Below are positions 488 to 59,251 of a stretch of DNA of 64,000 nt, one piece after another (position 1 is the first letter of the stretch; each line of letters begins with the position of its first letter). The notes beneath the pieces are model-generated. The model ran no database searches, was not told where the DNA came from, and saw only the letters and a program-made list of their open reading frames with translations. The DNA comes from Octopus vulgaris. Its lineage: Eukaryota. Location of the stretch: contig OX597824.1 of the NCBI GenBank assembly GCA_951406725.2, forward strand, positions 24,428,001-24,492,000. Reading direction: 5' to 3'. The position numbers and the translations under genes are program-made.

Positions 488-559
488 GGTCTTATGGTGT
501 AATGGTTAGCACTCTGGACTTTGAATCCAGCGATCTGAGTTCAAATCTCGGTGTGACCT
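488..559 (+). tRNA. tRNA-Gln(TTG), near-intact, possibly weakened
   Basis: 72-nt GGTCTTATGGTGTAATGGTTAGCACTCTGGACTTTGAATCCAGCGATCTGAGTTCAAATCTCGGTGTGACCT. It folds as a cloverleaf with A and B boxes and a TTG anticodon. The acceptor stem has one T-T mismatch and one G-T pair. Confidence 0.9.
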
Positions 560-5860: not shown

Positions 5861-5870
5861 TATATGTATA

Positions 5871-6016
5871 TCGAACTCTCTCATGCACCAAATGGCAGTT
5901 GTTAAAAAGCATTCGTGAGGTAAAATCATGTAGCAAACCAAATGGCGGTGCCCCAGTATGGCCACAGCTCATGAGCTGAAACTGGAAAAATCAAAAATCA
6001 AAATCATATCAAAATC
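5871..6016 (+). mobile_element. 5'-truncated 3' end of the CR1-like LINE
   Basis: Aligns with 48393-48532, including the CAGCTC-AT-GAGCTG hairpin and the (AAAATC)n tail. Confidence 0.85.
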
Positions 6017-6020
6017 ACAC

Positions 6021-22269: not shown

Positions 22270-22391
22270 GTTTTGTTTTGTTTTGTCTAGTTTCAGCTCA
22301 CGAGCTGTGGACATGCTGGGGCACCGCCATCTGCATGCGTTCCCATGCCGGGAATCGAACCCGGGCCGCCTGGGTGAAAGCCAGGAATCCT
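22270..22391 (-). pseudogene. 5'-truncated tRNA-Glu(TTC) fused to a CR1-like LINE 3' tail
   Basis: Minus strand: AGGATTCCTGGCTTTCACCCAGGCGGCCCGGGTTCGATTCCCGGCATGGGAA (22391-22340) + CGCATGCAGA + TGGCGGTGCCCCAGCATGTCCACAGCTCGTGAGCTGAAACTAGA(CAAAA)n. Confidence 0.85.
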
Positions 22392-47385: not shown

Positions 47386-47393
<8 letters not shown>

Positions 47394-47830
47394 ATAGAGG
47401 GCATTATTACACATAAATGCCTCACACTAGGAGGGACAAAGTCATTACTACCAAAAATTATACTAATCATACCCAAATGCAGTTTTTCAAAGCAAGACAT
47501 TTAAAAAATGAATCAGTTCTGCTGACGATCATTAGACGCAAGTTGTATGTGAAATCACGGTGATACAGAACATAATTCATTTTTTAAATGTCTTGCTTTG
47601 AAAAACTGCATTTGGGTATGATTAGTATAATTTTTGGTAGTAATGACTTTGTCCCTCCTAGTGTGAGGCATTTATGTGTAATAATGCCCTCTATACAATA
47701 TAGATATAATTAATTTGTTCAAAAGAAAAAAATTATTTTCGGATTCTTTTCTTTTATGAGGTTTTCACGCTAGCTACCCGATAATTTCTTGTTAAGATCC
47801 CTTATTAAGAGATTATCCTTAATTGTTAAA

Positions 47831-47880: not shown

Positions 47881-48532
47881 TGGTCCTCTGGAAGACACTT
47901 GTCCTAAGCCACTTTGACTATTGCTCTCAGCTATGGTCACCATCCAGTGTCAAGTTGGTCACAGAACTTGAGGCGATCCAACGAAGCTACACGAAGAAGA
48001 TAGCCTCTGTGCAGCATATGAGCTACTGGGAGAGACTCAAGAGATTAAAGCTCTATTCCCTGGAGCGTAGACGAGAAAGATATGCCATAATATATATCTG
48101 GAAGATCCTGGAAGGTCTTGTCCCAGACTTTGGCATCGAGAGTCACACAAATGCCAGAACCGGACGCCACTGCGTAGTACCAAGGACTCCAAATTTGCCA
48201 TCAAGATGTAGGACAAGATATTGTGATAGCCTGGGCTTCAGAGGCCCACGGCTCTTCAATATCCTCCCGAAGAACCTGAGGGACCTGCATGGTGTAGATG
48301 CGGATGTCTTTAAAGTAGGACTGGATCTCTTCCTGTCAGGTGTCCCGGATGAACCAACTTCACGGCAGGAGGTGCAGATGAGGGCAGCTGCATCGAACTC
48401 TCTCATGCATCAGATGGCGTTTGCTAAAAAGCATCCGTGAGGTAAAACCGTGTAGCAACACCAAATGGCGGTGCCCCAGCATGGCCACAGTTCATAAGCT
48501 GAAACTGGAAAAATCAAAATCAAAATCAAATC
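47881..48532 (+). pseudogene. 5'-truncated CR1-like LINE: ORF2 C-terminus (open to stop at 48440) and 3' UTR
   Basis: WKTLVLSHFDYCSQLWSP...LEAIQRSYTKKI...SYWERLKRLKLYSLERRRERY..IYIWKIL.GL...RGPRLFNILP...FK..LD, then an (AAAATC)n tail. Confidence 0.9.
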
Positions 48533-57808: not shown

Positions 57809-58280
57809 AATGTAAATATGTAGTGTCAACATTCGAAATCCTGCTTCATTTCACATGAAATTTTTGATCCGCCAAAGTTGATTCGGTGTATAAGTCGACC
57901 AACCTTTTATTCTCTGCCCCTTGCTCCGTTAATCTTGTATCTGACTGAAAAATTCGAATTGTATGCCACAAAATACAGTATGCAGGAGACCCAATATTAC
58001 CGCTCCCATAAAAGGGTCACCGAGCGTGTGTTGGCACACTCCTGCCTCGCCAAATTATTGGTCAAAGCTGAAGCTTCTAAGCTGGTAATTCTCACACTGG
58101 GGTCTATATGGCCTCTATGGGTCTACGCAAGAAAATAGTAAATTAGGGATCCATAATAATATTTTAAGGGACCCTGAAAAGAATTTGCTTTAGATGTATG
58201 TATTGCAACAAACGGCTAAGTTTCTTTCTCTAACATTTTAGAAAGCCCAACCAAGTTAATGTACGAAAAACAAAATAGGA

Positions 58281-58407
58281 ATTGATTGATTGATTGATTC
58301 TAGATTCAGCTCACAAATTTAAAAATTTGTGGGCAACCAGCCATGAGGGACGAGCTCACATCCCTTTGATTACCAGTCAAGTGCTTTACCAATTAAGCTA
58401 AACTGCC
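58281..58407 (-). pseudogene. Degenerate tRNA (Thr-like, GGT loop) fused to a hairpin and CR1-like terminal motif
   Basis: 73-nt cloverleaf at 58407-58335 (D stem GCTT/AAGC, anticodon arm CTTGA-CTGGTAA-TCAAA, T stem GTGAG/CTCAT), then GCCCACAAATTT-TT-AAATTTGTGAGCTGAATCTAG(AATC)n. Confidence 0.7.
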
Positions 58408-58489
58408 AAATGTTGAAAGAAGTTTGTATAAATCATCAAATGGTTATAGGAGCCCACTAGAATAAAATAGTACGCAAAGGGGTCCATTC

Positions 58490-58674
58490 TTATATTTGTT
58501 TCAGTCATTTGACTGCGGCCATGCTGGAGCATCGCCTTTAGTCGAACAAATCGACCCCAGGACTTATTCTTTGTAAGCCTAGTGCTTATTCTATCGGTCT
58601 CTCTTGCCGAACCGCTAAGTTACGGGGGACGTAAAGACACCATCATCGGCTGTCAAGCAACGTTGGGGGGACAA

Positions 58675-58754
<80 letters not shown>

Positions 58755-58917
58755 GACGGACTTCTTTCAGTTTCCGTCTACCAAATCCACTCACAGGGCT
58801 TTGGTCGGCCCGAGGCTATAGTAGAAGACACTTGCCCAAGGTACCATGCAGTGGGACTGAACCCGGAACCATCAGGCTGCTAAGCAAGCTACTTACCACA
58901 CAGCCACTCCTACGCCA
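58490..58917 (-). mobile_element. SINE family A nested in a hAT-like MITE end
   Basis: Host sequence GAATAAAATAGTAC...GGGGTCCAT | AGATAA...TTGAGAACCCCT is uninterrupted at about 3815-3885. Confidence 0.85.
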
Positions 58918-59251
58918 TAGATAAGAAATTGTTGAGAACCCCTCTAAGCCAACACTGGCACAGCAACTACAGTAACACAGAGAACCTGTCTATCATTAAT
59001 CACCCTACGACTAGCACCTATACTGATACCGCCTACCACTATGAATTCAACTATTCTTCTCATTTGTACTATCGTTGTGCTTGTAACCTTGAGATATGGA
59101 AAGACAAACCTCTGAAATTAGCAGCTTAAACACACTCTGCATATGATATGCTGATATGCCCTTACATATATACATACATACATACATACATACATGCAGG
59201 CATGTATACATACGTACGTACATAAATATACATATACATATGCATATATAC

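Follow-up and report, generated by a model that had tools for sequence, protein, structure and literature searches.

How a tRNA head gains a LINE tail is the central, and mostly inferred, step in the origin of SINEs, and an insert at 58284-58408 in the Octopus vulgaris genome raises this question in a compact form. In the window, i.e. the whole stretch of 64,000 nucleotides that was analysed, a tRNA-like sequence is joined there to the terminal motif of a CR1-like LINE. The original prediction saw in it a Thr-like tRNA that had been linked to the LINE motif through a new hairpin, as one of several body-less mini-SINEs. Read 5' to 3', the insert consists of a head, a trailer that runs to a T5 run, a 6-nt filler, a 15-nt LINE tip and terminal repeats:

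58335..58407, minus strand: tRNA-like head with GGT at the anticodon position and two altered places in its T-box; it forms the 5' part of the 302-bp unit of a dispersed repeat
58321..58334, minus strand: the repeat's own trailer, ending in T5; it is also the left hairpin arm and is identical in the source candidate L002
58315..58320, minus strand: 6-nt filler at the junction, the trailer's reverse complement; the LINE tail usually starts with the same 4 nt as this filler
58300..58314, minus strand: the terminal 15 nt of a CR1-like LINE, in an end variant that is also found on a LINE fragment in L098
58284..58299, minus strand: (AATC)4 terminal repeats of that LINE end variant
about 58082..58944, no strand assigned: host MITE with terminal inverted repeats, interrupted by the chimera and by a SINE at about 58488-58916 (minus strand)

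The host element, which we take to be hAT-like from its terminal motif, provides the empty site. The site is continuous in 16 out of 19 sister MITE copies parsed, mostly as TTCAA-AATT-CC, in agreement with the predicted location inside a MITE, and head and tail lie together in an element whose sister copies run on unbroken. The same comparison places the insert at 58408-58284, with a duplication of at most 4 bp that is imperfect (CATT/AATT).

The predicted 73-nt tRNA-like stretch on the minus strand is borne out by Rfam family RF00005, which matches 58407-58335 with 38.6 bits (gathering score 29, E 1.4e-4). The cloverleaf fared less evenly: the covariance model matches and places GGT at the anticodon position, but ARAGORN calls no tRNA at 58407-58335 and the folding energy of the head gives no cloverleaf (z -0.61). 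The A box is intact and the B box is altered at two places, which we assume to be normally invariant positions; the alteration is shared by the chimera and L002. Scored against tRNA retrocopies from the same genome, in a panel without Thr(AGT), Met and Ile, the body of the head resembles Arg (66), Lys (64) and Thr (63) almost equally (shuffles 36). The NGT anticodon is the one feature that speaks for the label 'Thr-like', and with a negative ARAGORN result and body scores that are alike, the head does not look like a functional tRNA-Thr gene. Moreover, GGT was found in 16 out of the 45 family heads parsed (U33 in only 9 of the 45). It is a common state of the repeat family, and the earlier idea that it had mutated here from AGT, CGT or TGT is not supported. 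An intact-looking tRNA gene, tRNA-Gln(TTG), is present at the other end of the window (488-559, plus strand, 61.6 bits, followed by a T-run).

Judged from sequence comparison, the head appears to be the first 87 nt of a dispersed, tRNA-derived 302-bp repeat, cut at the T5 run, and not a tRNA gene. A genome search gave at least 594 candidates, and among the 40 that were scored, all but the chimera (39 loci) cover only the head and trailer. In most relatives of the head the shared sequence extends on both sides and resolves into a circularly permuted unit of 302 bp. The 39 non-chimeric repeat loci were retrieved by likeness to two heads and so do not sample the family at random. An inverted copy abuts the repeat in 23 of them, 15 are longer than one unit, and in 31 the 3' end falls in one of two narrow windows that cover 21% of the positions. 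Outer ends are found at unit positions 174-186 and 243-250. These loci are L002, L011, L024, L069 and 35 more, e.g. G000:C4:11740896. Tandem and inverted copies that are 5'-truncated and have fixed outer ends are what is expected of a Penelope-like element. Partial tandems, abutting inverted 5' copies, fixed outer ends and a unit of about 300 bp are also described for the Penelope-like Naiad and the non-autonomous Chlamys (PMC8557442) and for non-LTR retrozymes (10.64898/2026.07.22.740005). Unlike these, the octopus repeat has a tRNA-like segment in its unit and no hammerhead core that we could find: the core motif is absent within the unit in 46 copies, so that the one hammerhead per unit of a retrozyme is missing, and no ribozyme family was matched in 8 repeat loci. 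No GIY-YIG domain and no partner protein were found in the 58 out of 103 flanking frames that were scanned. A reverse transcriptase fragment near one parent copy (L020) was set aside as it lies about 300 bp away with no link to the repeat. The Helenus TRIM, which has tRNA-like LTRs (PMC10886601), was also set aside as the parent repeat, the copies being without fixed 5' ends and often inverted. Elsewhere in the window, at about 47390-47700, a long inverted duplication inside TA repeats resembles, by eye, a Penelope-type insertion of another family.

The genome contains a single near-identical source candidate for the head, L002 on C4, which is 98% identical to the chimera over 87 nt. A diagnostic 21-mer occurs at two places in the genome, in the chimera and in L002, and in the latter the sequence continues into the repeat on both sides. 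Since L002 differs at two positions where the chimera keeps the family state, it is either the source or a close sister of it. More diverged relatives of the head, each on a CR1 tail, occur at L081, L126, L100 and L198; ARAGORN calls one of them tRNA-Thr(CGT).

The hairpin of the original prediction is present, with arms at 58334-58323 and 58320-58309 and one mismatch. As just 2 nt lie between the arms, the fold has 10 pairs and a 4-nt loop; its energy (-9.1 kcal/mol, z -3.46) was equalled by 1 out of 200 shuffles. That it is new is not supported, as its left arm comes from the trailer of the repeat and 6 out of the 12 bases of the right arm are LINE tip. The 45-nt, two-hairpin tail of the usual chimera is mostly lost in this one: after AAAT, which remains, TT stands in place of 27 nt, and then the tip follows. 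The complement of the trailer resembles the tip of the tail (GTGGGC/GTGAGC), and the hairpin is most likely a scar of the junction. The T5 that closes the trailer at 58321..58334 is likely a Pol III terminator. It lies upstream of both the right arm and the 15-nt tip; with the terminator inside the hairpin, a transcript that ends there would not be able to form it.

The tail can be traced to its donor within the window. The motif GAGCTGAAWCTRG, with at most one mismatch, has four matches there (5973, 22287, 48496 and 58300) against 0.18 expected, which confirms the likeness noted earlier to the sequences at 22287 and at about 5971. Three of these matches belong to the following features:

47883..48530, plus strand: 5'-truncated young CR1-like LINE with the C-terminus of ORF2, 3' UTR, two-hairpin tail and (AAAATC)n; tail-donor lineage
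5870..6017, plus strand: shorter 3' fragment of the same LINE lineage, including the motif noted at 5971
22287..22391, minus strand: pre-tRNA-Glu chimera with a head 5'-truncated by 20 nt, a 9-nt trailer without T-run and the full 45-nt tail from the fixed point

The LINE at 47883-48530 has 2,976 candidates in the genome, and the 40 scored are 98-100% identical to it. P0001 by itself gave no Pfam match; a longer copy carries a reverse transcriptase (PF00078 in P0003), and an 89% identical protein, P0004, contains both the endonuclease PF14529 and PF00078. An AP endonuclease and a reverse transcriptase in ORF2, a 3' hairpin and short terminal repeats are the structural marks of a CR1-type element, and from the C-terminal motifs we presume the lineage to be CR1. 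CR1 families are described as recently active in Octopus vulgaris, in a source that also lists the categories 'U' and 'U-L1' (PMC13282606). The exact LINE end of the chimera occurs four times, and as one occurrence is on a LINE fragment (L098), the 15 nt and the (AATC)4 are LINE-derived. Within the window, no LINE tail matches a ribozyme family of Rfam; we also considered by eye whether the tail folds like a hammerhead or HDV ribozyme and set this aside. The SINE at 58488-58916 (minus strand), which is abundant and has many copies, has a tail that resembles the LINE tail, with a likeness that starts at the base where the chimeras are joined.

A genome search for a second copy of the chimera found this single copy only, and a first exact pattern of the family head and tail gave 0 matches, being too strict. 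The same kind of junction is frequent once the head is left free. A census by exact matching (a T-box followed at 10-40 nt by the start of the LINE tail) found 95 loci, with 0 in a reversed-pattern control, and 92 of them were examined (one on C29 and two on C30 were left out). ARAGORN calls a tRNA in 48 out of the 92, which represent 13 amino-acid types and 23 anticodons (one call is a relative of the 302-bp repeat). The donor is a LINE with endonuclease and reverse transcriptase. The proposal that one CR1-like lineage was joined repeatedly to different tRNA sequences is supported by these loci, and more strongly than the original prediction could show. The heads have gene-specific trailers (86 distinct arm-plus-trailer strings out of 92, few recurring in 2-3 loci), none ends in CCA (0/92), and introns are called in three chimeras, where long Rfam matches agree; such heads point to unprocessed transcripts from many genes. 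T4 or longer is found in 67 out of 92 trailers and is absent from 25. Heads are often 5'-truncated, e.g. 15 out of 19 Glu-type heads by 5 nt or more.

Some of these loci are copies of one event. Five near-identical loci on C27 and C29 (L180-L182, L187 and L188) represent one 5'-truncated family-head chimera in five places, and since they share flanks they are DNA duplications; a Thr chimera, L166 on C22, is tandemly duplicated 318 bp apart. With these subtracted, the census holds at most 87 events. The target-site duplications (TSDs) sought around the 48 full heads cannot be separated from TA microsatellites: the mean longest match is 8.1 against 6.2 for shuffled pairs, and the TA microsatellites on both sides explain the excess, so that we claim no TSD. 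Such TA-type microsatellites flank both sides in 35 out of 92 chimeras.

The heads are not restricted to tRNAs. A pattern of a T-run followed by the tail start matches 154 loci (control 0), and in 20 loci scanned, which come from the first 30 out of the 154 (9 of the 30 repeat census loci and 1 was left out), there are 3 U6, 1 5S and 3 tRNA matches. One locus, L211 (C2:31050597), is a complete 5S rRNA retrocopy in which a trailer leads up to a T-run ahead of the tail, and so represents an untrimmed precursor. Three further loci, L147, L149 and L161 (C14:31677517, C16:35427388 and C20:57222541), have in common a head, about 95 nt long, that contains a T-run and a motif like a T-box; it gave no credible Rfam match at E 0.05 and is a candidate Pol III RNA or repeat. 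At L206 (C1:192772597) a different type of SINE, apparently whole as judged by eye, has a T-run at its end and is joined to the CR1 tail at the fixed point, possibly a tail swap.

What is new here is that the junction is fixed at one point. The likeness to the LINE reaches 0-3 nt above the ATGG of the tail in 92 out of 92 chimeras, i.e. to the base of the first of the two tail hairpins. The census pattern requires the tail start and cannot alone reveal shorter junctions, and the control patterns cover two other stretches only. A T-box with an internal LINE word about 75-90 nt further up was found at 0 loci. A T-box with the tip only was found at 3 loci: one has a full tail close to the T-box, in another the join falls within the acceptor stem, and the third has lost an internal part of the tail, as is proposed for the chimera at 58284-58408. 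The 3' half of the tail alone has 4,818 matches in the genome. As unselected LINE ends, 70 of the first 71 on C1 were measured, leaving out L100 as a known fixed-point chimera; they include one inverted pair. Of these 70 ends, 32 fall in an 8-nt window (-3 to +4) where about 1 is expected. The others are shorter (14) or longer (24), and although the next 63 nt contain 7 AT/TA sites, just 1 of the 24 ends there. Pol III heads are found on 6 out of the 32 fixed-point ends and on 0 out of the 38 others (Fisher p 0.007). Microhomology with TA targets may add to the stand-alone stops. Scaled up from one chromosome arm, these numbers correspond roughly to 2,000 bare tails and 400 chimeras for these LINE variants. 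Our literature search, which covered sources other than subscription journals, Repbase and supplements, found no account of a fixed junction or of broad pre-tRNA capture by CR1; the repeat library of PMC13282606 and Repbase may already contain some of these sequences.

We consider it probable that the insert is a single-copy chimera of the repeat and the CR1 tip that arose in one reverse transcription event, in which the LINE enzyme primed on the end of its own RNA before it jumped onto a nascent Pol III transcript at the U-rich 3' end. ORF2p would bind the two 3' hairpins and prime at a nick. After about 45 nt the template would end or the grip fail, and about half of all insertions would stop there. 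In a minority, an untemplated A would pair with a U at the 3' end of an acceptor (pre-tRNA, U6, 5S or a transcript of the repeat), along which synthesis would go on. The R2 reverse transcriptase is described as jumping to 3' ends in vitro via a 1-nt untemplated overhang (10.1101/2021.04.30.442027). In the chimera at 58284-58408 the likeness of the trailer complement to the tail tip would let the polymerase fold back, during or after insertion, so that 27 nt of tail would be lost and the hairpin would remain as a scar; as the filler is the reverse complement of the trailer, a fold-back could explain the deletion and the hairpin together. Several observations do not sit easily with the jump. The 25 trailers without T4 and the lack of a clear target-site duplication speak against it, the chimera starts at the first base of the cloverleaf while three sister chimeras start 7-8 nt earlier, and the altered T-box shared by the chimera and L002 is awkward for Pol III transcription of the source.

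The mini-SINE view, in which body-less elements amplify and the LINE enzyme recognises the hairpin as a functional stem, is largely refuted, and we give it hardly any weight. It could draw on the hairpin folding better than shuffles, on the few arm-plus-trailer strings that recur, and on the SINE families of birds that were founded by swaps of tRNA heads on a CR1 tail (PMC5729268). However, the element has one copy, the T5 precedes the right hairpin arm, and the near-identical C27/C29 loci are DNA duplications. On a tree of 48 family heads, which is short and weakly resolved, the 8 that are chimeric require 7 changes (7.6 on average after shuffling), and 0% of 200 bootstrap trees group them together; they are scattered over the tree. 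In the census, too, most trailers are distinct. It is also quite improbable, if slightly less so, that two separate events are involved, with short LINE tails inserting into the T-run behind pre-existing tRNA genes or repeat copies. Such insertions would explain a junction of TTTT/AA, which resembles the target of an AP endonuclease as known from L1, the very common stand-alone tails, and the lack of a clear duplication that brackets head and tail together. They would not explain a head that has neither native flank of the repeat and sits inside a MITE whose empty site is continuous, the many 5'-truncated heads of the census, or the 35 chimeras with TA-type microsatellites on both sides. Intact repeat copies also rarely end at T5 (0 out of 39 non-chimeric 3' ends below unit position 136).

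The most serious competitor, which we nevertheless regard as unlikely, is that RNA ligation came first: LINE RNA would be cut at the base of the first hairpin, its 3' piece joined by an RtcB-type ligase to U-ended small RNAs, and the fusion retrotransposed. A template jump and an RNA ligation leave the same DNA, so the DNA junction alone does not separate them. A cut RNA end fits both the fixed junction and the many stand-alone tails that start at the same base, but no ribozyme family was matched at the LINE tails of the window. Most heads are pre-tRNAs, 5S or repeat transcripts, and nascent transcripts of these kinds are expected to end in 3'-OH. RtcB is described as joining U6, which is among the chimera heads, to L1 RNA, but required a 2',3'-cyclic phosphate for it (PMC6789731). 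We favour the template jump onto the nascent transcript.

The octopus chimeras are close to the U6/LINE chimeras that are described for L1, L2 and RTE and in the SINEs Mon-1 and AnolisSINE2, where a sense, U-ended Pol III RNA is likewise found on a LINE 3' end (Doucet et al. 2015, PMC4476161). In platypus the U6/L2 chimeras often have a 5'-truncated head, a short L2 piece and duplications of 1-9 bp, and they were proposed as an origin of SINE tails (PMC4476161). The heads of that set are U6 or U6atac, with a sole CR1 case given as inconclusive (PMC4476161), whereas the octopus heads are mostly pre-tRNAs of many types, with 5S and repeat transcripts, on one fixed LINE base. The RtcB-dependent U6/L1 chimeras also have the T-run of a small RNA joined directly to the LINE (Moldovan et al. 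2019, PMC6789731), but their junctions are described as lying throughout L1, with no motif and with a need for the cyclic phosphate, as opposed to 92 out of 92 within 3 nt of one site in octopus. Mammalian tRNA/LINE-1 chimeras resemble ours in that tRNA sequence was inserted together with a LINE (PMC11838501, preprint). They are described from 21 loci, as mostly antisense tRNA halves that arise by twin priming, and differ in this from the octopus sense precursors with trailers, no CCA and some introns (PMC11838501). Finally, TguSINE1 and PittSINE are body-less as well, with a tRNA head on a CR1 tail, and head exchange by template switching was proposed for them (Suh et al. 2017, PMC5729268). 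These are amplified families from two founding events (PMC5729268), and the octopus loci represent about 87 or fewer independent, unamplified events, in which the founding step itself can be seen.

The locus itself is a dead and atypical member among chimeras of its kind. It is a sense small RNA ending at a T-run and joined to a LINE 3' end, i.e. a chimeric retrocopy of Pol III RNA and LINE. A SINE family it is not, with one copy, a tail of 15 nt only and the T5 upstream of the tail; this tail is an outlier that falls outside the census pattern. With the terminator upstream of the tail, transcription would end before the tail is reached and the copy would fail to spread, and most of the other chimeras likely share this fate, as they keep a Pol III terminator ahead of the tail. 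The terminator, kept or lost, is a simple filter that predicts which chimeras could spread.

We tentatively put forward, as a proposal that may well be wrong, that this CR1-like lineage has a built-in break point, so that its 45-nt 3' module (a cut RNA or a hard stop) would act as a universal adapter for U-ended nascent Pol III RNAs and would sample germline precursors by the hundreds. It would be a standing nursery of SINEs in which only rare captures without a terminator found families, and the abundant SINE would have arisen in this way. As the LINE is young (copies 98-100% identical), the model of stopping and jumping can be tested in vitro. One genome preserves some 90 or more frozen instances of the capture step, the precursor marks date it to before tRNA processing, and the chimeras list the Pol III RNAs that are present in germ cells. 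A LINE enzyme that stops at a fixed point and hops onto small RNAs is the likely cause, and this would be the birth step of new SINEs.
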